Assembly (NCBI GenBank): GCA_016182295.1
Contig: JACOXP010000005.1
Coordinates: 4,926-68,925 of the forward strand
Length of the DNA: 64,000 nucleotides
DNA from: Candidatus Harrisonbacteria bacterium
GTDB lineage: Bacteria > Patescibacteriota > Minisyncoccia > UBA6257 > WO2-44-18
Reading direction: 5' to 3'
Positions 4,610 to 41,759 of this stretch are shown one piece after another. The notes under the pieces are model-generated. The model was not told the DNA's origin. It saw only the letters and a program-made list of their open reading frames with translations, and searched no databases. Each line of letters starts with the position of its first letter. Positions within the stretch are counted from its first letter, which is position 1. The position numbers were made by a program, and so were the translations under genes.

Positions 4610-6109
4610 ATGAAGCAAAACCTTCTTTGGGTAATCGCGATTTTTGTTGTTTTTGCTGCTGCTTGGCATTTTGGCAATCCCAATATCGCCGATCCGGACA
4701 GTTTCTTTTACATGGGGCTGGCTTCTTGGCATCGGGAAAGCGGAGTTTTGGCCAACGATTTTCCCTGGATATATCACTCCGTCGTTCGCGAGCTTTCCGC
4801 TTCGCTTTGGTATGGTTTTGGCGTTTTTTTAATCCCGTTTTCTTTATTAAGCATTCCTTTTTGGAGTATCAAAATCGCGGGCGTTCTTTTAACCGCGGCG
4901 GCGCTTTTTTCGATTTACTGGGTGTGTAAAAAATTCGGTTTCCGCTGGCCGGCATTCTGGCCATTCCTGGCTTTTTTTGCCGCCCCCAACTCTCTCTTTC
5001 ATTTTCTAATGGTCAGGCCGCAGACAATTTCGCTGATTTTGGCGCCCTTGTTGTTTTATTTTCTTTTACGTCGGTCGTTTTGGGGCATCGCGCTTACTTC
5101 TTTTGGCATCGTCTGGTTTCATTTTAACTTTGCCTGGCTCCCAGTTTTAATTTTTGCCGTCATTAAATTTTACTCGCTTCTTTTTGAGAAAAAAATTGTT
5201 TTAAAAGAAGGTTTGACTTTGCTGGCCGGTCTGTTGTTGGGTTGGCTTTTGCGGCCGGAACCAATCGCTGCCGCCAAGCTTTTTTATATTCAGGTCTTCC
5301 AGCAGATTTTTGAAAAATCCGGCGGTTTGCCGCTGATCTTTGGCGCGGAAAATTATCCTTTAAGCGCCGAGATTCTTTTCACCAATTTCTTGGTGTTTCT
5401 CGTTCTTTGGGTGGCCGGAACGTTTTTTATAAGCAAAACAGCGATGGAAAAAAGAATGCTGATTTTTTGCGGCTTAACCATTTCTTCCATTTTCTTTTTG
5501 ATTTCCATTATTGTGGCGAGGCGAGCATACGACTTCTGGATCATTTTCGGAGTTATTTTTCTCGCTGCCGTTTTTTCCTTCATCGAAGGCAGACAAGTTC
5601 GGCAAGCGGTAGCCTACGTGTTGGGCGGCATTCTTGTTTTTTTGATTTTATTTTCCGGCGTTAAGACCGGTATCAGTTTGGCTAACCAGGGGCACTCGCC
5701 GACAAATTTGAAAGAAGTTTCCCTTTGGCTGAAGGAGAACAGCCAACCTGGGGAAATCGTTTTTAATCTTCACTGGGCGGATTTTTCACCGCTGTTTTAT
5801 TGGAATCGCCAGAATTATTACACTTTCGGTCTCGATCCGATTTTTGCGTACGCCTATAACCCGTCGCTTTATTGGAAATTTCATTACCTTTCCATCGATC
5901 AAGTGACTAAAAAAACTTGCGGCGCTGAAGCCTGCACCCGGGAGCAATTGGAAGATACTTATGAGGTTTTGGTTCGCGATTTTAACGCTAAGTACGTATT
6001 GCTTACCAAAGATGAAAACCCAGCCGTTGATTTTTGGATTAGCGGAGATGATCGTTTTCAGAAAGTATTCGAGACGGATAACGAGAAAATTTACCTCATC
6101 CAAGAATGA
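4610..6109 (+). CDS. GT-C fold polytopic membrane glycosyltransferase (PMT/ArnT/STT3-like), paralog 1
   Basis: 499 aa, about 12 predicted TM segments followed by a ~130-aa soluble C-terminal domain. First-loop motif ADPDSFFYMGLASW (D-x-D-x-aromatic). Translationally coupled to paralog 2. Confidence 0.5.
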   Translation: MKQNLLWVIAIFVVFAAAWHFGNPNIADPDSFFYMGLASWHRESGVLANDFPWIYHSVVRELSASLWYGFGVFLIPFSLLSIPFWSIKIAGVLLTAAALFSIYWVCKKFGFRWPAFWPFLAFFAAPNSLFHFLMVRPQTISLILAPLLFYFLLRRSFWGIALTSFGIVWFHFNFAWLPVLIFAVIKFYSLLFEKKIVLKEGLTLLAGLLLGWLLRPEPIAAAKLFYIQVFQQIFEKSGGLPLIFGAENYPLSAEILFTNFLVFLVLWVAGTFFISKTAMEKRMLIFCGLTISSIFFLISIIVARRAYDFWIIFGVIFLAAVFSFIEGRQVRQAVAYVLGGILVFLILFSGVKTGISLANQGHSPTNLKEVSLWLKENSQPGEIVFNLHWADFSPLFYWNRQNYYTFGLDPIFAYAYNPSLYWKFHYLSIDQVTKKTCGAEACTREQLEDTYEVLVRDFNAKYVLLTKDENPAVDFWISGDDRFQKVFETDNEKIYLIQE

Positions 6110-7647
6110 ACAAGAAATTATTACTTTCAATTCTTGTAGTCATAGCGGTTGCCTTTGCCCTTCACGCGAGCATTCCCGGAATTCCGGATACGGACGCTTT
6201 TTATCACATTCGCCATTCCTGGCTTTACCGCGCCGGCGGTATTTTCCAATCCAGCTTCCCGTGGACTCAATATTCGGTCATCAACCAATACTCCGCGGAT
6301 ATCTGGTACGGATTTCATATTTTAATAATCCCCTTCACGTTTTTTAGCGATCTTATCAAGGGAATGACAACCGGCGGATTTGCGGTAAATTTGGCGGCGG
6401 TTTTTCTGGTCTTCGCCGCTTTATCAAGGTTAAAAGTAAAATGGCCGCTTTTTTGGACTTTTCTTTTCTGGTTCGCTTCGGCTGATGTTTTATTCCGCTT
6501 GACGATGTTGCGCCCTCACCCGCTTTCGATGGGGCTTAGTTTGATTATTTTTGCTTACTTAGCCACGCCGAGAACCAAGTATACTTTGCCGATTATCTTT
6601 TTTTCCGCGGCGACTATTTCGTGGATACACCTTTCTCTTTCCTGGCTGCCGATTTTGGTTGGCCTTGCTGTCGCCGGTGTCGCCATTCTAAAAAAGGAAA
6701 TTCAGCCGATAAAAAACGCGCTTCTCATAATCCCCGGAATTTTATTGGGGTGGGTTCTGCGTCCCAATTTTTTAGGAGCGGCAAAGATTGCTTATATTCA
6801 GGTTGTCCAGCTTGTCGTGGAGAAACAGTTTGGCGCCGAGTTTCTTCGCTTTGGCCGAGAGTTGCGCCCGTTCGTCTTTGAAAACTTCGCCGATCAATTG
6901 GTGCCGATTTCTGTTTTAATGACGCTGGGAATTTGCCTGATTTTCTGGAAAGTTTTTTTAAAAAAAATTAAAACCGCGACGGCTACTTGGGCCAGTCTGG
7001 GATTGGCGGTTTTGTTTTTCACGCTGGCTTTTACTTTGGCTCGGCGCGCCAACGATATTTTTATCGGTTTTGCCGCGATTTTTCTGGGGCTATTATTCAC
7101 GGAATTATTTATGGAAAAACGTCTGTTTACGGCAAAGTGGGTAATGCCGGTATTGACCACGACCGTTGCCATCATTTTAGTAGCGATGCCGATTAAAAAT
7201 ATTTATCGTTTCGGAACTTACCTTCAAAATGTTTTCGATCCGCAAAGATTTAGCGAGGCTTCCAAATGGCTGATTAAAAATTCCCAGCCGGGCGAAATCG
7301 TGTTCAGTCCGAATTGGGATCGTTTTGGGCCGCTGTTTTTCTGGAATTGGCAAAATTATTACATCAACGGCATGGATCCCATTTTTGAATTTGCTTACGA
7401 TCAATCGCTTTATTGGAAAACTCATTTTCTTTCCGTTGATCAAGGAGCCGCGATCACTTGCGGTATGGTTCGTTGCAGAGCTGGCGAAGCCGAGGACACA
7501 CATTTGGTTCTGAAACGAGATTTCAAAGCGTCATACATCATAGTTGAAAAAACGCGCAGTCCGAGGTTATATGAATATGTGGCAAAAACTGATGGTTTTA
7601 AGAAGGTCTTTGAAACTGTTTCGGAAGGAGTGTTTAAAATATTATGA
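6106..7647 (+). CDS. GT-C fold polytopic membrane glycosyltransferase, paralog 2
   Basis: 513 aa; same architecture. First-loop motif IPDTDAFYHIRHSW. The C-terminal domain motif NSQPGEIVF...W.RFGPLF.WNWQNYY is shared with paralog 1. Confidence 0.5.
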   Translation: MNKKLLLSILVVIAVAFALHASIPGIPDTDAFYHIRHSWLYRAGGIFQSSFPWTQYSVINQYSADIWYGFHILIIPFTFFSDLIKGMTTGGFAVNLAAVFLVFAALSRLKVKWPLFWTFLFWFASADVLFRLTMLRPHPLSMGLSLIIFAYLATPRTKYTLPIIFFSAATISWIHLSLSWLPILVGLAVAGVAILKKEIQPIKNALLIIPGILLGWVLRPNFLGAAKIAYIQVVQLVVEKQFGAEFLRFGRELRPFVFENFADQLVPISVLMTLGICLIFWKVFLKKIKTATATWASLGLAVLFFTLAFTLARRANDIFIGFAAIFLGLLFTELFMEKRLFTAKWVMPVLTTTVAIILVAMPIKNIYRFGTYLQNVFDPQRFSEASKWLIKNSQPGEIVFSPNWDRFGPLFFWNWQNYYINGMDPIFEFAYDQSLYWKTHFLSVDQGAAITCGMVRCRAGEAEDTHLVLKRDFKASYIIVEKTRSPRLYEYVAKTDGFKKVFETVSEGVFKIL

Positions 7648-9373: not shown

Positions 9374-10228
9374 TTAGTTTTTGATTATTTTCCACGGTTT
9401 TGGTTTATTAATAGGAAAAGAAAAGCCCGCTGCCGGTTTATGTCCTCCCCCGCCATAGCGGGCGGCAATTTTGGAAACATCAACTTTGCCGTTAGAGCGT
9501 AGAGAAATCCTAAGCGCGCCGGATTTCTCGCTCCAAACAAGAGCTATTGGAGGTTTTTTCTTGACTAATTCGGCTCCAACCTCCGAATGAAGAACCGGTG
9601 AGTTAACCGCTAATATTTTGCGGCCAGCGAATTTTACCGTTTCCGCGCCCTTCAAAAGCCGTTCGATCATCTCCTTTTCATATCTGAGCAATAAACCACC
9701 CTTCTCAAAATAACTTCGGCGGCGTTTTGAATTTTCCAAATCTCGCGCAATCTTATCAAAATTTTTGAAGTTTAAATCGATCATTTGCACGTAGGCAGTC
9801 AACTCTTTAGTTCCGGGAACTTTAAATTTCCAAAGATCTAAATCCTGGATGTGCCGAGTTAAGCGGGGCACTTTTTTATTCGGATGAAAATATTGCCAAG
9901 CGATCATAGCTCCGGATTTATTTAATTCATAGACGTATTCATGAGCCATCTTCGTTGATTTTTTGGCGGAAACATGATGATCCAGAGCTATCACTTTTTT
10001 ATTTTCCCGGACAATTTTTTGCATCAACGGTTCTTTAAAAGAAAAATCAACGACATATATTTCTTTGCCCTTAAGGCCGGACGGTAAAGAATCCCCGTGC
10101 TTTAATCCGTAGTAATCGGCTTTGTTGCCGAATTTTTTCCAAGCTGCCCAGCCACCCCCCGTCCCGTCCATGCACTCACCGTGATATAAAATAACTATTT
10201 TTTTAGACATGTTTTTTAAGTATTTCAA
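9374..10228 (-). CDS. DHH/DHHA1 phosphoesterase (NrnA-like oligoribonuclease/pAp phosphatase)
   Basis: 284 aa; DHH motif (ALDHHVS) and DHHA1 GGGH..AAG near the C-terminus. Confidence 0.6.
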   Translation of the reverse strand: MKYLKNMSKKIVILYHGECMDGTGGGWAAWKKFGNKADYYGLKHGDSLPSGLKGKEIYVVDFSFKEPLMQKIVRENKKVIALDHHVSAKKSTKMAHEYVYELNKSGAMIAWQYFHPNKKVPRLTRHIQDLDLWKFKVPGTKELTAYVQMIDLNFKNFDKIARDLENSKRRRSYFEKGGLLLRYEKEMIERLLKGAETVKFAGRKILAVNSPVLHSEVGAELVKKKPPIALVWSEKSGALRISLRSNGKVDVSKIAARYGGGGHKPAAGFSFPINKPKPWKIIKN

Positions 10229-11177
10229 CGCCGGGCAATTTTTTACCGGCCAGCATTTCCAGCATCGCGCCTCCTCCGGTTGATAGAAAATCGATTTTCT
10301 TTTCGAGACCGAGGTGTTTAATCAATTGCGTCGTTTCTCCTCCACCGGCCACTGAAAATGCTTTACTGGCGGCAATGATATGCGCGAGAGCGATTGAGCC
10401 GGCGGCATATTTAGGATTTTCAAAATTTCCAATCGGACCGTTCCAAATCACGGTTTTCGCTCTCCGAATAACTTCTTTATACTCTATTATCGTCAATGGG
10501 CCAACGTCATAGGCCCACTTTTTCTCCCCGACCCAATCAATTGGCCGAACTAATTTTGATGATTTTGGAATTTTAGAATTGTTTAAAATACTGCTTCCAA
10601 GAAGAACTTTATTGGTTTTTGGCAGCAGATATTTGATTACGGGCAATTTATCCTCAATTTTACTACCGCCGAAAATCAGCACTAAGGGACGTTTCGGCTT
10701 TTTCATAACTTTAGAAAGCACCCCAATTTCTTTTTTTAAAAGCAAGCCCATTGAAGAAGGAAGCAGTGTGGGAAGCTGGGTAATGGAGGCATTTTTTCTG
10801 TGCGAGACCGCGAAGGCGTCATTTATATACCGGTCGCCAAGACGAGCTAATTTTTTGGCAAATTGCAGATCGTTCTTTTCTTCGCCCGGCCAAAATCTCA
10901 AATTTTCCAAGAGAAAAATCCGGCCGGCCGGCAACTTTTCAGGAATTTTTTTAAGAAAAACAACCTTTTGCCGAAGATGGTGCCGGAGAAACGGCAAAAA
11001 TTCTTTCAGACTCAATTTAGAGTTATTTTTCCCGTCAGGACGCCCGCGGTGGCTTAAAATTACTACTTTTGCCCCCCCTTTGCGCAATAATTGTTCAATA
11101 GTCGGTAAAGAGGCTTCCAAACGGAGCGCGTCTTTAGCGCTTTCAACATTAAAATCAACTCTCACGAGATAAGTCAT
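10203..11177 (-). CDS. pgk: Phosphoglycerate kinase (compact form)
   Basis: 324 aa; VRVDFNV...KVVILSHRGRP at the N-terminus and GGGETTQ...STGGGAMLEMLAGKKLPGV at the C-terminus. Confidence 0.8.
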   Translation of the reverse strand: MTYLVRVDFNVESAKDALRLEASLPTIEQLLRKGGAKVVILSHRGRPDGKNNSKLSLKEFLPFLRHHLRQKVVFLKKIPEKLPAGRIFLLENLRFWPGEEKNDLQFAKKLARLGDRYINDAFAVSHRKNASITQLPTLLPSSMGLLLKKEIGVLSKVMKKPKRPLVLIFGGSKIEDKLPVIKYLLPKTNKVLLGSSILNNSKIPKSSKLVRPIDWVGEKKWAYDVGPLTIIEYKEVIRRAKTVIWNGPIGNFENPKYAAGSIALAHIIAASKAFSVAGGGETTQLIKHLGLEKKIDFLSTGGGAMLEMLAGKKLPGVEILKKHV

Positions 11178-12611: not shown

Positions 12612-12884
12612 ATGGCGCATACAAAAAGCGGCGGGTCTACAGACCTGGGCCGCGATTCAAGATCAAAACGACTTGGCATTAAGATTAACGACGGAGAAGC
12701 CGCTAAAACCGGCGAAATTATTATCCGCCAAAGAGGTACTCATTATATTCCGGGTCAAAATGTCGCCCGCGCCGGCGATGACACGCTTTACGCGATGAAG
12801 TCCGGCGTTGTTAAATTTGTTTCCGGAAAAAAGGCCCGTTTTGACGGATCTCGGCGTTTTATAAAGATCGTAAAAGTACTTTAG
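12612..12884 (+). CDS. rpmA: 50S ribosomal protein L27
   Basis: [24 protein letters not shown]... canonical L27 N-terminus. Confidence 0.9.
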
Positions 12885-13284
12885 CTTTTCCCCTTATCCC
12901 CCTTCCGAATTTTACGGCGATTACGTGTTCTCCCAAAGAACGAAGCGGATGTTTGAGATCCGCTTCCGCGTTTTCATAGCCCCTTTCCGCGAGGGCTTTT
13001 TCGATTTCTCCGGCGCCGACTGATCCGAAAACCTCGCCTTTTTTGCCGGTTTTGACGAAAAATTCGAAGACCTCGATTTTTAAAGCGTCAACGCGGTTTT
13101 TATAACTATCAAAGGTTTCCGCTTCCTTTTTATCAAAATTTTCTTTGATCGCCAATGCTTTTTGATCTGCCGGGATCGCTTTTTTTCCGGGAAATAAAAA
13201 ATTCCTGGCGTAACCGTCGCTCACGTTTTTTATTTCCATTTTTCTTCCCAAACCGCGAACGTCTTGAAGAAGAAGCACCCGCAT
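12859..13284 (-). CDS. rplI: 50S ribosomal protein L9
   Basis: [32 protein letters not shown] canonical L9. Confidence 0.85.
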
Positions 13285-17904: not shown

Positions 17905-18813
17905 CTAAATTTTAAGGTAACGGCGGACGGCGATTGTCGCCGAAATCGAACCCAGAAGTATTCCGAAAGCGAGGTTATAGGTTAGAAATTGAGGCCAGCG
18001 ATCAAAGAAATAGGCCGTCAGAGAAAGCTCCGGAATGAAAACATCCGCGTACGGAGCCGCCAGTATTATAATCGGACTGGCAATCAACAAACTGATGACG
18101 CCTCCAAGTAAGCCATAAATGATTCCCGCCACCACGTAAGGCCCGTGTATGAATTTATTGGCCGCTCCCACTAAACGCATAATTCCTATTTCTTCGCGGT
18201 TTGAGTAAATAACCAGCCGAATCGTGTTGAAAGTTACCAAAATCGCCACCAGGGAAAGAAATATGGTTACCGCGAGACCGGTGTTGCGAATGGTGTCTAT
18301 AATGCGCGCCAAGCGCTCGATAGCCAAACGTGTCTGGGTATAATTTACTTTATCAATAATGTCAGAGAGATTTTCAGTGGTTAAGTATTCAGCAATGTTG
18401 GCATATTGGTCGGGATTTCGAGCTTTGATATTAAGCGAAGCAAGCAGCGGATTTGATTGAAGCTCTTCCAACGCTTGTTGAATAGTTGGATCATCTTTGT
18501 GCTGATCTTTGAAAATCGAAAGCGCTTTATCCTGCGAAACATATTCTATCGCTTTTACCTCCGGTAATTTTTCCATCACGCGCGCCAATTCAAGAATTTG
18601 ATCTTCCGGCGCTTCTGATTTGAAATACACGCTGATGTCTATTTTGTCTTGGAGCGAAGCGGTCGCCGTGTTAGCAGCGACTCCGAAAACCAAAAGGCCA
18701 TTGAACACCAACAGCGCCAACACCAAAACAGATATCGTTGTAGCCGAAAGAAGCGCGTTGCGAGAGAAATTTTGAAAACCGAATTTTAATATTCTAAAGA
18801 ATGTAGTGGCCAT
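17905..18813 (-). CDS. ftsX: Cell division permease FtsX
   Basis: 302 aa; four TM segments with a large periplasmic loop; directly downstream of ftsE. Confidence 0.8.
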   Translation of the reverse strand: MATTFFRILKFGFQNFSRNALLSATTISVLVLALLVFNGLLVFGVAANTATASLQDKIDISVYFKSEAPEDQILELARVMEKLPEVKAIEYVSQDKALSIFKDQHKDDPTIQQALEELQSNPLLASLNIKARNPDQYANIAEYLTTENLSDIIDKVNYTQTRLAIERLARIIDTIRNTGLAVTIFLSLVAILVTFNTIRLVIYSNREEIGIMRLVGAANKFIHGPYVVAGIIYGLLGGVISLLIASPIIILAAPYADVFIPELSLTAYFFDRWPQFLTYNLAFGILLGSISATIAVRRYLKI

Positions 18814-19474
18814 GTTCCGCGTCGTTTATTAGTTTACCACCTTTAAGGGTGACAACACGACGTTTTAATTTATTGACTATGTCTCGACTGTGGGTGGCTA
18901 AGATTACCGTGGCGCCGAGTTCCTCGTTAATTTTTAAAAGTAAATTAATAATATCTTCAGCGTTTTCATGATCCAAGTTGCCGGTTGGTTCGTCGGCCAC
19001 AACGACCGATGGTCTGTGAATCATCGCTCTGGCAATCGCGACCCGTTGTTTCATTCCGCCGGAAAGTTCGTGGGGAAAATAACTTTGATTATCCGCCAAA
19101 CCAACCAAATCGAGCATTTGCGGGACCAGCTCTTCAATTTCCCACTGCGCTCGCCCCTCAACTTCCAAAGCAAAAGCGACATTTTCGTAAGAAGTTTTAG
19201 TGGGCAGTAATTTAAAATCTTGGAAGACCACCCCGACTTTTTTTCTTAAAGCGGGCATTTCTTCGGGTTCTAGTTTATTAACTTCATAGGGACCAAAAAT
19301 CACCCTGCCTTTCTGCGGCCGATCCTCGCCTATTAAAAGCTTAACGATGGTTGACTTCCCCGCTCCGGAAGGGCCGGTGAGAGAAACAAATTCGCCCGGC
19401 GAGATTTTAAAGCTTACGTTTTCAAGGACGGGTTTACCGTTATAAGACTTAGTGACGTTGTGAAAAGCTATCAC
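18794..19474 (-). CDS. ftsE: Cell division ATP-binding protein FtsE
   Basis: Walker A GPSGAGKST, ABC signature LSGGMKQR, Walker B VVVADEPTGNLD. Confidence 0.9.
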   Translation of the reverse strand: MIAFHNVTKSYNGKPVLENVSFKISPGEFVSLTGPSGAGKSTIVKLLIGEDRPQKGRVIFGPYEVNKLEPEEMPALRKKVGVVFQDFKLLPTKTSYENVAFALEVEGRAQWEIEELVPQMLDLVGLADNQSYFPHELSGGMKQRVAIARAMIHRPSVVVADEPTGNLDHENAEDIINLLLKINEELGATVILATHSRDIVNKLKRRVVTLKGGKLINDAEHGHYIL

Positions 19475-19522: not shown

Positions 19523-20248
19523 TTATAATTGTAACTCGGCTTCGATGAATTTGTCTAAATCCCCTTCTAAAACCTTGTCCGGCTGGCTGGATTCCGCGCC
19601 CGTCCGATGATCTTTAACTTTTTTGTAAGGGTTGAGGACGTAAGAACGAATTTGACTTCCCCATTCCGGCTTAACTTTGGTTCGAAGCTCGGAAAGCTCT
19701 TTTTTCTGACCGGCAATCATCAGAGTTTTTAATTTTGATTTTAAAAGTGACATAGCTTTTTCTTTATTTTGCGGTTGGGAACGCTCTGACTGAGAAGCGG
19801 CGGCTATACCTGTCGGCAAATGGACAATTCTTACGGCAGTTTCCCTTTTATTTACATTTTGTCCGCCCGGACCGCTGGATCTAGAGGTCTCAATTTTTAA
19901 ATCCTCCGGCGGAATTACCACATCCCTATGTTCGATGTCCTGAAAAATTGGCACAACCTCAACGAGCGCAAAAGAAGTATGACGCAATTTTTTGGCCGAA
20001 AAAGGAGAAATTCTGACTAAGCGGTGCACCCCCATTTCATTTTTGAGAGTTCCGTAAGTAAAATCGCCGCGAATTTCCATTCCGCGATCTTCGGTCGCCA
20101 CCACTTTCCAGCCGCGTTTTTGAACGTATTTAAAATACATTCTAAAAAGCATATTCGCCCAATCTTTGGCGTCTTCGCCGCCAACACCCGCGTAAATAGT
20201 CAGGTGCGCTGGTCCTTGATCGTATTTCCCGCTTAACGCTTTAAACAT
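19523..20248 (-). CDS. prfB: Peptide chain release factor 2 homolog lacking the N-terminal domain 1
   Basis: 241 aa; SPF codon-recognition motif (RISPFSAKKLRHTSF) and GGQ motif (GPGGQNVNK). It begins at the position equivalent to about residue 120 of E. coli RF2. No upstream frame and no CTT-TGA frameshift site. Confidence 0.7.
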   Translation of the reverse strand: MFKALSGKYDQGPAHLTIYAGVGGEDAKDWANMLFRMYFKYVQKRGWKVVATEDRGMEIRGDFTYGTLKNEMGVHRLVRISPFSAKKLRHTSFALVEVVPIFQDIEHRDVVIPPEDLKIETSRSSGPGGQNVNKRETAVRIVHLPTGIAAASQSERSQPQNKEKAMSLLKSKLKTLMIAGQKKELSELRTKVKPEWGSQIRSYVLNPYKKVKDHRTGAESSQPDKVLEGDLDKFIEAELQL

Positions 20249-20720
20249 ATTTTTTATAGATTATATCGTCCCCGGCGTTTTTGCCATATAAATCGTCCTT
20301 TCCGGAAATTTGATAATGATTTTTAGTCAAGAAATAACGAATCGATAAATTCTTTGATTTAGCGTCGCATAAAATAAACTTTGACCGAAATTCTCTAACG
20401 CCTTCCGTTTCCGAATTACGCAAAAGGAAACTTGCTATATAGCGGCCCCGTTTATCGGGCCGTACGGTAAGATTTTTAATTTCCAAAGCGTCCGGATGCC
20501 GCTTATGTTTTTGATAAATCGTTACGCCGACGATTTCTTTATTTTCAACAGCGACTAAGGCGCGTTTGGATTCTTTTTTTAATTCCGTATGGACTTTTTG
20601 CGCCCAATCAAAAAAATCAGGATAATCATTCTGGGGAATCCAAAGCCGCGGACCCAAAAGATAACTGATGACCTCATCTATTTTTGAAGCAGGATAATCA
20701 TTTGTGAAGACGAAATTCAT
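20241..20720 (-). CDS. GNAT family N-acetyltransferase
   Basis: Motif A-like VRPDKRGRYIASFLL. Start taken at the ATG (MNFVFT...) rather than the upstream GTG, which would overlap tRNA-Thr. Confidence 0.5.
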   Translation of the reverse strand: MNFVFTNDYPASKIDEVISYLLGPRLWIPQNDYPDFFDWAQKVHTELKKESKRALVAVENKEIVGVTIYQKHKRHPDALEIKNLTVRPDKRGRYIASFLLRNSETEGVREFRSKFILCDAKSKNLSIRYFLTKNHYQISGKDDLYGKNAGDDIIYKKYV

Positions 20721-20723
20721 TTG

Positions 20724-20795
20724 AGCCACCTCTCGGATTTGAACCGAGGACCTTTCCCTTACGAAGGGACTGCTCTGCCGCTGAGCTAAGGTGGC
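20724..20795 (-). tRNA. tRNA-Thr (anticodon CGT)
   Basis: Minus strand gccacct...aggtggc acceptor, D-arm gctc/gagc, anticodon loop ttCGTaa, T-arm ctcgg-ttcaaat-ccgag. Confidence 0.8.
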
Positions 20796-20839: not shown

Positions 20840-20910
20840 TTTATCTCGGAGCGGGCGAGGAGAATCGAACTCCCGTCCGTTGCTTGGGAAGCAACCGTAC
20901 TACCACTGTA
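20840..20910 (-). tRNA. tRNA-Gly (anticodon CCC)
   Basis: Minus strand gcgggcg/cgcccgc acceptor, anticodon stem gttgc/gcaac with loop ttCCCaa, T-arm gggag-ttcgatt-ctcct. Confidence 0.85.
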
Positions 20911-20921
20911 CTACGCCCGCA

Positions 20922-39722: not shown

Positions 39723-40820
39723 TTATTCTATTTCCCGCTCAAGATCCTCTAAAATTTTTTTGGCTTTGGCGTTGAGTCTTTTGGGAGCGCGGACCTCCCA
39801 TTCAACATAAAGATCGCCGCGGCCGCGGCCTCCGAACTTAGTCATTCCTTCTCCGGAAATTTTTACGCGTTCCCGCAAATCCACTCCCGCCGGAATCACC
39901 ATAAAAACTTTATTGCCGCTGATAGTCGGTATTTCAATTTTTTTCTCCAATAACACATCCAACAAGTCAATCTCTTTTTTTACAAAAAGGTCGTCATTAA
40001 ATCGTTTAAAAATTTTATGATCGGCTATTTTTATCCTAAGATAAAGGTCGCCTGGCTCCGCTCCCCGCTCTCCGGCATCTCCCGCTTTGGGAATTTTAAT
40101 AAGTTGATCATTGGCTACTCCGGGAGCGATTGTTATTTTAATTTCTTTGGAAACCTTTACTCTTCCGGTTCCGGAACACTCTCGGCAGGGTTTTTTGGGA
40201 ATTTGACCGCTACCCGAACATTTCGGGCAAGTTTTTACCTGGGAAATATTTCCGAAAAAAGTGCTTCGGGATTCCCGAATTTCCCCCCGCCCGCTGCAAG
40301 TCGAGCATTCGCTGACGCCTTCAGAAGCAAAATACCCCAGGCCGGAGCATTGGCCGCAGGAAGTAAAAACTTTAACTTTAATATTTCGATCAATGCCGCG
40401 AAAAGCTTCCTCAAAAGTAATTTCTTCAACAACCTCTAAATCAGAACCGCGATTATAACTTTTTCGTTTTCTGACTCCCAATCCCTCAAAAAACGCGTCG
40501 AAAATATCGCTGATATTGCCAAGATCCTCCGCGTTGCTCGGATCGAAGCCAAAACCAAACTCAAAATTTCCGAAGGGGTTATCCCCGCCGGGAGAAGGTC
40601 CGCCTCCGGCGGAAAAAACCCGCCCAAAGCGGTCGTATTGCGATCGTTTTTCTTTATTGGAGAGGACCTGATAGGCCTCGTTAATTTCTTTAAATTTTTC
40701 AGAATTTCCACCGGCTTTGTCCGGATGATGTTGGTGAGCCAATTTACGGTAAGCTCGCTTGATGTCGTCTTCCGTAGCGCCCTTACCGACACCAAGAATT
40801 TGGTAATAATCTTTAGGCAT
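39723..40820 (-). CDS. dnaJ: Chaperone DnaJ
   Basis: J-domain YYQILGV...HPDK, G/F region, four CxxCxGxG zinc-finger repeats. Confidence 0.9.
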
Positions 40821-40835
40821 TATCTAAATATTTTT

Positions 40836-41759
40836 TTACTCTAATACTATAACAGTTTTGCTCTTACTCTGCAATTCAATCCGGCAAAAATTCATTGCCA
40901 ACAGTAATTGATAGAGCAGAACCGCCAGAGCGATTGCCAACCAATTAATAATAATTAACAAAAATTTAGCCATTAAGAAAATCAAAAACCCAACGCCTAT
41001 TAAAGTCAGATTTCTCGCAAAAGGCGTTAAGGCAAGCAATCTTCCGACAGTGGCGCGGTAAAAAATATCCAATAAACTATCGCTGGTTTTCGCGGGTACA
41101 CCGGTCAAGTTTCCAAAAACTTCGCTAAGACGCGAGGCCGATTCCGAAATAAATTCATTTTTAGTGGCTTGCGAAGCGTTAGCCAGCTCTTCTGGAAGAA
41201 GCGCCGCGGCAATTTCAGTTATTGATTTTTGAATTGAAAACCCGGGAATATAACCGGCCGCGATTGGCTCCGCCGGTTTAATTATTATGGAAAGAGTTTC
41301 TTTGACTGACGTTGGATCGCTTAAATTAAAAGACCCGAGATAGGCGATGATCGCGAAAAGAGCAATTGCGGAAGAAGCGGGACCTAAAATAGCGAGACCA
41401 GTTTTGGTAAATTTTATTTCCAAACTATTTTTTAACTCAAGACGGCCTCGATAATATCCCCACAAAAGAAGAATCGAAAAAATGCTCATAGCGGTTATGG
41501 AAACTGTTGAAAATGGCGCGCCCGAGGAAACACCCACCGCTATAGCGGAAAAGATAATAATTAAAAATTTCGGAAAGAAAATATCCAATAATAAAGTTTG
41601 AATAAGAAAAATACTTAGAAATAAAGCTCCGGCCAAAGCCAAAAATATTAAAGAAATTAAACTGCCGTCAGCGACAAAGTTCCTAAAAGCTAATCCAAAA
41701 ATAATCGCGGCGATTATCGAAACCGCTCCCAAAATGATTGTTTTAAGGTCTCGGCTCAT
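40836..41759 (-). CDS. Polytopic membrane protein (hypothetical), inserted between dnaK and dnaJ
   Basis: About 307 aa from the internal Met ([13 protein letters not shown]...). The longer six-frame ORF would overlap the dnaK 3' end by about 100 nt. Confidence 0.4.

Follow-up and report, generated by a model that had tools for sequence, protein, structure and literature searches.

The gene prfB, which encodes release factor 2 (RF2), commonly, though not universally, contains a programmed +1 frameshift site (CTT TGA) near its beginning. The architecture of RF1 and RF2 is nearly absolutely conserved, and the only reduced bacterial forms given in a survey of release-factor diversity are ArfB and PrfH (PMC6514570). 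Reduced factors have also been engineered: as far as the work of Mora et al. (2003) is summarised in PMC1586002, E. coli release factors deprived of domain 1 retain codon-specific release in vitro, and the truncated RF1 works in vivo. Here we describe a natural gene of this kind, located in 64,000 nucleotides (nt) of contig JACOXP010000005.1 (positions 4,926 to 68,925 of the forward strand; assembly GCA_016182295.1) of a Candidatus Harrisonbacteria bacterium. This whole stretch is referred to below as the window. It carries, on the minus strand, an open reading frame (ORF) of 241 amino acids (aa) that starts with ATG and stops with TAA, and whose product lacks domain 1 of RF2 completely. We consider it, with a probability of about 0.75, to be the genuine and functional prfB of this Harrisonbacteria-type member of the Parcubacteria/Paceibacteria, for which the canonical role of RF2 is predicted.

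The domain content of the protein was established by comparison with curated profiles and with our own hidden Markov model (HMM), built from 63 full-length RF2 proteins and comprising 365 positions. The Pfam PCRF profile was matched only over positions 91-194 of 194, the NCBIfam model TIGR00020 (prfB) over positions 107-352 of 353, and our HMM over positions 114-360, so that the protein is RF2-like but devoid of domain 1, as a first, sequence-only reading of this DNA had proposed. The missing part amounts to about 110 residues (HMM positions 1-113). The Pfam RF-1 domain, which bears the GGQ motif, is complete (126 bits, positions 4-116 of 116). Both motifs which the same reading had recognised, SPF and GGQ, are indeed present in the translation (Table 1), together with RHTSF (residues 89-93) and the tryptophan and glycine of the switch loop (W196, G197). 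That reading had also placed the start of the protein at about residue 120 of E. coli RF2: the truncated start was confirmed, and its position was shifted to approximately residue 115, since query residue 4 aligned with residue 118 of the solved E. coli protein (1gqe).

Comparison with the related families placed the protein nearest to RF2. TIGR00020 gave 317.8 bits, which is below its cutoff of 370 because about 106 positions of the profile have no counterpart in the 241-aa protein, and the models of RF1 (prfA), PrfH and ArfB gave 185, 83 and 49 bits, respectively. The best matches in the PDB were RF2 chains (4e-63), with RF1 at 1.9e-45. These scores and matches indicate that the protein is RF2 and not RF1, PrfH or ArfB. 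Identity with PrfH was rejected on account of the canonical decoding motifs, the lack of an RtcB neighbour and a score under the PrfH cutoff of 166.65 bits. Identity with ArfB was likewise rejected, as only residues 108-142 matched (cutoff 100 bits) and domains 2 and 4 are present. The AlphaFold2 model of the protein (mean predicted local distance difference test score, pLDDT, 78) best matched the compact crystal structures of RF2, 1gqe and 2ihr, with template modelling (TM) scores of 0.66-0.71 over the query; the predicted structure thus shows an RF2-like fold.

A scan of GTDB species genomes supplied at least 80 prfB loci (the clade sizes are samples, not counts), designated here with L numbers, and their mapping onto the 365-position HMM distinguished three architectures of RF2. 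Full-length forms (about 340-370 aa, HMM positions about 20-362) occur in lineages of the Candidate Phyla Radiation (CPR), in Chloroflexota and in others. In intermediate forms (about 290-320 aa), positions 22-65, which correspond to the DFWND helices, are fused to positions 118-358; these were found at no fewer than 32 loci (L014-L075) labelled Paceibacterota, Adlerbacteria, Taylorbacteria, Nomurabacteria and others, for example at L014:1083-1820 and L045:10001-10723, where the first approximately 45 residues of domain 1 are kept. Short forms (about 241 aa), found in the window and its relatives, comprise only positions 113-360. Among 1.84 billion cluster representatives, the nearest full-length RF2 was the 347-aa protein P0121 (64% identical), whose cluster carries Candidatus Wolfebacteria names.

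In a neighbour-joining tree (a simple distance tree) of domains 2-4, the main group of short forms, including that of the window, formed one clade. Its sister group consisted of full-length Wolfebacteria-type proteins (P0121, L009, L010) mixed with two short ones (L008, labelled Colwellbacteria, and L012), and the intermediate forms made up a separate large clade. Among the loci fetched, an in-frame CTT TGA occupied the expected place at 42 of 43 full-length loci and at none of 32 intermediate ones. CTTTGA was found upstream of the short prfB at a single locus (L007) out of 11; there the motif falls within an unrelated SIS-domain gene, and it was treated as a chance occurrence. This comparison of sequences indicates that domain 1 has been reduced at least twice in the CPR radiation and that each reduction was accompanied by loss of the programmed frameshift.

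Several other features of these genes deserve mention. The domain-1-less genes outside the main short clade (L008:5667-6365 and L012:10001-10642) could represent a second, independent complete loss, or their placement could reflect poor resolution of the tree. A further short-looking outlier, L013, was placed among non-CPR sequences. Two features unite the short clade with the full-length Wolfebacteria form, a deletion of six residues in a loop of domain 2 (HMM positions 169-174, the 'EVAGIK' loop of E. coli) and the motif GPGGQNVNK in place of the usual GGQHVN; in the protein analysed here these features are situated at residues 52-56 (window about 20082-20096) and 126-134 (window 19847-19873), respectively. 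Finally, the Wolfebacteria-type prfB at L087:4001-5071 (84% identical to P0121) is interrupted by an in-frame TAA at codon 64 (TTA to TAA), and is therefore called as ORFs of 63 and 245 aa, the second of which begins, as in the short forms, at the methionine of the domain 1/domain 2 junction. This stop codon may be a snapshot of a truncation in its initial stage or, alternatively, a sequencing error.

The DNA upstream of the short gene of the window does not conceal a domain 1. An in-frame TAA is located four codons 5' of the prfB ATG, the remaining two frames of the same strand are crowded with stop codons, and CTTTGA is absent from the 900 nt upstream. An HMM restricted to the domain-1 columns of the 63 full-length proteins (filters off, E ≤ 10) gave no match in any of the six reading frames over the entire window, nor upstream of prfB at any of the 11 short loci. 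As a control, the same model matched the upstream region at every one of the 43 full-length and 32 intermediate loci. No further release-factor paralog was detected by tblastn within the window. Since neither a CTT TGA site nor an upstream domain 1 is present, the gene is not a mis-called frameshifted prfB; the sequence-only reading had maintained the same, and the three minus-strand frames which it left to be inspected contain no homology to domain 1.

The short form is not restricted to a single assembly. The identical 241-aa protein was found on contigs assembled independently from three SRA sequencing runs, and in NCBI, where it is assigned to a Candidatus Harrisonbacteria metagenome-assembled genome (MAG), it bears the name 'PCRF domain-containing protein'. 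The best 120 homologs among 5.8 billion proteins (71-100% identity) are all 226-272 aa long, and none of them contains the domain-1 positions of the HMM. The orthologs of equal length number more than 120; they derive from NCBI, JGI, ENA and Logan, and many of them lie on contigs of 50-240 kb. The suggestion that the short form might be characteristic of this lineage is thereby borne out, both by the length of the closest homologs and by the single clade which the main short group forms in the tree.

Constraint on the protein was gauged by invariant columns (the orthologs for which DNA was available share 63-80% protein identity, at which synonymous sites would be saturated). Across 66 aligned short forms, 75 such columns were counted, including those of SPF, RHTSF, GPGGQNV and GxQIRSYV. 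S81, P82, F83, the GGQ residues and G197 were invariant and W196 was conserved in at least 90% of the sequences; SPF and GGQ were also invariant in a mixed alignment of short and full-length forms. Four residues (H15, K28, P194 and K233) are specific to the short clade.

The position of the gene provides another line of evidence. The order prfB-ftsE-ftsX is common to short, intermediate and full-length CPR loci (the last exemplified by L009, L015, L033 and L034), and lepA and a divIC-like gene are often located upstream in the CPR prfB loci. The short gene fills the prfB-ftsE-ftsX slot of the intermediate and full-length genes, and this makes it the positional ortholog, not an added paralog, of prfB. 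RtcB was not present in any of the locus tables; the neighbours are a GNAT gene and tRNA genes upstream, and ftsE and ftsX downstream.

UGA is still used as a stop codon in these bacteria. Of 74 crude ORFs in the window, 14 end with TGA, among them some of 414-513 aa which overlap the next gene by ATGA, and the share of TGA among ORF stops is 15% at loci of the short clade, 16% at those of the intermediate clade and 21% at full-length CPR loci; a factor reading UGA is therefore still required. With its architecture, clade-wide conservation, positional orthology, motif retention and modelled fold demonstrated alongside this continued use of TGA, the short RF2 most likely serves a large clade of Parcubacteria as its working UGA/UAA release factor, as we predict. 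It would presumably be the sole RF2 of the genome and would terminate translation at UGA and UAA in vivo, in an organism from which RF3 is presumably absent.

We propose that, in the ancestor of this large clade, the approximately 110 codons of domain 1 were deleted, and that the CTT TGA frameshift site located within this segment was lost along with them. The translation start would have moved to the methionine at the junction of domains 1 and 2 (MFKxLTGKYD). The remaining protein would consist of the decoding module, i.e. domains 2 and 4 with SPF, the tip of helix alpha-5 (GGxDA), RHTSF and the WG of the switch loop, and of domain 3 with GGQ. Such a factor would bind the A site at UGA or UAA and hydrolyse peptidyl-tRNA in the manner of canonical RF2, while acting without the contacts of domain 1 with the uL11/bL12 stalk, without any domain-1-dependent interplay with RF3, and without autoregulation by frameshifting. 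By analogy with the engineered E. coli factors, a domain-1-less RF2 is biochemically plausible.

Several points weigh against this interpretation. The protein falls below the curated equivalog cutoff for prfB and has no full-length profile match. The sequence that was read comprises the window and the prfB loci of relatives, and a second, full-length RF2 could be encoded elsewhere. No RF1 was encountered in about 1.3 Mb (10 kb on either side of prfB at 86 related loci), which would have yielded chance finds only, as no search seeded with RF1 was made. Moreover, the C-terminal domain of bL12 bridges domain I of RF1 to uL11 and aids the binding and delivery of the factor (PMC6076264); because of this role of the bridge, a factor without domain 1 may be slower unless the ribosome is adapted to it.

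The most serious alternative is that the short gene encodes an additional, specialised derivative of RF2 (for instance a PrfH-like factor for ribosome rescue or stress), the canonical full-length prfB being situated elsewhere in the genome. PrfH demonstrates that domain-1-less homologs of release factors can hold specialised roles (PMC6514570; PMC1586002), the names assigned by the NCBI annotation pipeline PGAP go no further than 'PCRF domain-containing' or 'release factor-like', and the reading of loci instead of whole genomes leaves room for another gene. We nevertheless regard such a paralog as improbable. The gene occupies the slot held by full-length prfB in sister CPR lineages and nests among the CPR RF2 orthologs in the tree rather than forming a separate deep branch; SPF and the other decoding residues are unchanged, unlike those of PrfH, while the absence of an RtcB neighbour and the low score with the PrfH model also speak against it.

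Alternatively, the gene might be split, with domain 1 produced from another locus as a small protein of its own and associating in trans. The L087 locus, where the 245-aa RF2 ORF comes after a 63-aa ORF that bears the initial portion of domain 1, shows that gene finders can call separate pieces of RF2; it is, however, a contiguous full-length gene of the Wolfebacteria type with a single in-frame TAA, and not a relocated domain. Similarity to domain 1 was found neither in the window nor upstream of the short loci, and a CPR domain-1 profile run against 5.8 billion proteins, a search of low sensitivity for so poorly conserved a coiled coil, yielded only four matches: three on contigs of 770-3,327 nt (one annotated as partial) and the L087 piece itself. 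A split gene is therefore unlikely, somewhat more so than a paralog. As for the third alternative, a pseudogene or a normal prfB wrongly assembled or called, MAG assemblies may carry frameshifts or truncations and the protein fails the prfB cutoff, but this explanation is effectively refuted by the identical sequence in three independent assemblies, the numerous orthologs of equal length, the invariant functional motifs, the conserved gene order, the lack of an upstream domain 1 and the occupation of the upstream DNA by other real genes or tRNAs.

Table 1. Features of the prfB region (window coordinates)
Feature	Position	Strand	Description
short prfB	19523..20248	(-)	RF2 ortholog with domains 2-4 only; no domain 1, no +1 frameshift site
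SPF codons, residues 81-83	20000..20008	(-)	RF2 stop-codon recognition motif, within GVHRLVRISPF...RHTSF
GGQ codons, residues 128-130	19859..19867	(-)	peptidyl-tRNA hydrolysis motif, within GPGGQNVNK
ftsE (ABC ATPase)	18794..19474	(-)	Pfam ABC_tran; 48 nt downstream of prfB
ftsX	17905..18813	(-)	closes the conserved prfB-ftsE-ftsX block
GNAT acetyltransferase gene	20241..20720	(-)	Pfam Acetyltransf_1; stop overlaps prfB start by 8 nt; probable start given
tRNA-Thr (CGU)	20723..20795	(-)	conserved in the clade as the neighbour upstream of short prfB
tRNA-Gly (CCC)	20848..20920	(-)	part of the conserved upstream block

The GNAT gene upstream of prfB had been noticed in the sequence-only reading, together with the overlap of its stop with the prfB start (ATGTTTAA). 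The overlap stands, and the ORF has a weak but real and specific match to Acetyltransf_1 (E 1.8e-6), along with a weak, sub-cutoff rimI-like match. The start assumed at that time (GTG at 20729) falls inside the tRNA-Thr gene, and for this reason the ATG at 20720 is more likely. The tRNA-Thr gene is also located upstream of prfB in L088, L089, L004, L006, L007 and L008. In the closest relatives examined, L088 and L089 (88% and 84% identity), no gene separates it from prfB, and in L088 its 3' end lies 11 nt before the prfB ATG. Since L088 and L089 carry no GNAT gene at that position, the one found between tRNA-Thr and prfB in the window is an insertion specific to this genome, and its overlap with prfB is incidental. 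For the same reason its candidacy as a functional partner of prfB, based on the overlap and the weak RimI similarity, was rejected.

The gene immediately 5' of the short prfB differs among the other genomes as well, being VIT1 in L004, an amidohydrolase gene in L006, a SIS-domain gene in L007 and a divergently transcribed IleRS gene in L005. The region around tRNA-Gly, tRNA-Thr and prfB accommodates a different small gene in each genome (the GNAT gene in the window, a GIY-YIG-like ORF, assigned by eye, at L088:5626-5900, and the genes of L004, L006 and L007 listed above), and it looks like a local insertion hotspot.

Another phenomenon observed at this site concerns gene starts. A gap of 2-11 nt separates the 3' end of tRNA-Thr (CGU) from the next coding sequence, as exemplified by the GNAT gene of the window (20718-20795), prfB of L088 (5917-6003) and the SIS-domain gene of L007 (935-1014), with no obvious Shine-Dalgarno sequence. 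This arrangement suggests co-transcription with the tRNA, and mRNAs that become nearly leaderless after tRNA processing.

Elsewhere in the window, two adjacent ORFs of 499 and 513 aa (4610-7647), which overlap by ATGA and have no Pfam match, are followed by a gene for a family-2 glycosyltransferase. The gene for ribosomal protein bL9 (12862-13284) encodes both domains of this protein, and the lineage is therefore not among the CPR groups lacking bL9. Phosphoglycerate kinase (10206-11177) appears to be short (324 aa, compared with a profile of 379 positions). The interval 40820-41743 was considered as a possible gap, which was rejected, as it is filled by an ORF for a membrane protein. Rfam searches of the window identified only tRNAs as RNA features.

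In searches of the full-text literature we found no description of the loss of domain 1 in CPR RF2. A natural RF2 of this kind departs from the near-universal three-part architecture of RF1 and RF2, and the only domain-1-less relatives discussed in the searchable literature, PrfH and ArfB, are both accessory factors (PMC6514570). One clade has no detectable RF2 ortholog other than a domain-1-less one, and a neighbouring clade retains half of the domain; together they constitute a natural experiment. Such variants bear on the debated role of domain 1 in docking to the stalk, in coupling to RF3 and in control of the transition from the compact to the open conformation. They also illustrate that autoregulation of prfB by frameshifting can vanish together with domain 1.

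There is a practical consequence, too. Given the sub-cutoff scores of these proteins and names such as 'PCRF domain-containing' or 'release factor-like', automated genome surveys could wrongly score their hosts as lacking RF2. In the CPR, true loss of RF2 marks the reassignment of UGA, and mis-scoring of this kind is relevant to the inference of genetic codes in this group.

We consider the short RF2, a well-conserved protein which hundreds of related bacteria also encode, to be real, lineage-wide and mechanistically plausible, and a two-module reader of stop codons seems sufficient for these cells. The broader proposition, that Paceibacteria in large part terminate translation with a minimal class-I factor because domain 1 of RF2 has been eroded repeatedly, might equally well hold or fail. 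The same even balance applies to the proposed course of this erosion, by which one big clade was left with half of the domain and the clade of the window with none, and the Colwellbacteria-type pair L008/L012 possibly lost all of it a second time, independently. If this were true, the docking of domain 1 through bL12 and uL11, and any coupling to RF3, would be dispensable in vivo; the stalk region of the CPR ribosome may have co-evolved to permit the loss, and the natural variants would provide ready material for settling the purpose of domain 1.

Among the known factors, canonical RF2 (PrfB; TIGR00020) is the closest to the short form. Both possess domains 2, 3 and 4 with SPF, GGQ, RHTSF and the W-G of the switch loop, with approximately 43-47% identity to the RF2 of B. 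subtilis, T. thermophilus and E. coli over the shared region, and the short form keeps the prfB-ftsE-ftsX locus of its CPR relatives. It differs in lacking domain 1 and the CTT TGA frameshift, in the six-residue deletion in the domain-2 loop, and in having GGQNVNK instead of GGQHVN. The intermediate RF2 belongs to the same CPR radiation, is encoded at the same locus and has also lost the frameshift site, but it retains the N-terminal part of domain 1 fused to domain 2 and forms a clade of its own.

The resemblance to stand-alone rescue factors is more limited. ArfB/ICT1 proteins share with the short form a GGQ domain with a GPGGQNVNK-type motif, whereas they lack the decoding domains 2 and 4, which the short form has, and rely on a basic C-terminal tail. 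PrfH (RF-H; TIGR03072) is a class-I homolog which naturally lacks domain 1 and has kept a decoding-like domain and GGQ. It is characterised by altered recognition motifs, pairing with RtcB, sporadic horizontal spread and a role in ribosome rescue and repair; in contrast, the short form keeps SPF, has no RtcB neighbour and is inherited vertically as part of the prfB locus, and its PrfH score of 83 bits falls short of the required 166.65. In architecture, the short form is most like the E. coli RF1 and RF2 from which Mora, Zavialov, Ehrenberg and Buckingham (2003; as reported in PMC1586002 and PMC6076264) removed domain 1, leaving the decoding module and the GGQ domain. According to these secondary accounts, such constructs perform codon-specific release in vitro and the truncated RF1 supports growth. 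The engineered factors, however, are laboratory products studied in a host that possesses RF3, whereas the short RF2 has been fixed naturally across a large clade of uncultivated bacteria.

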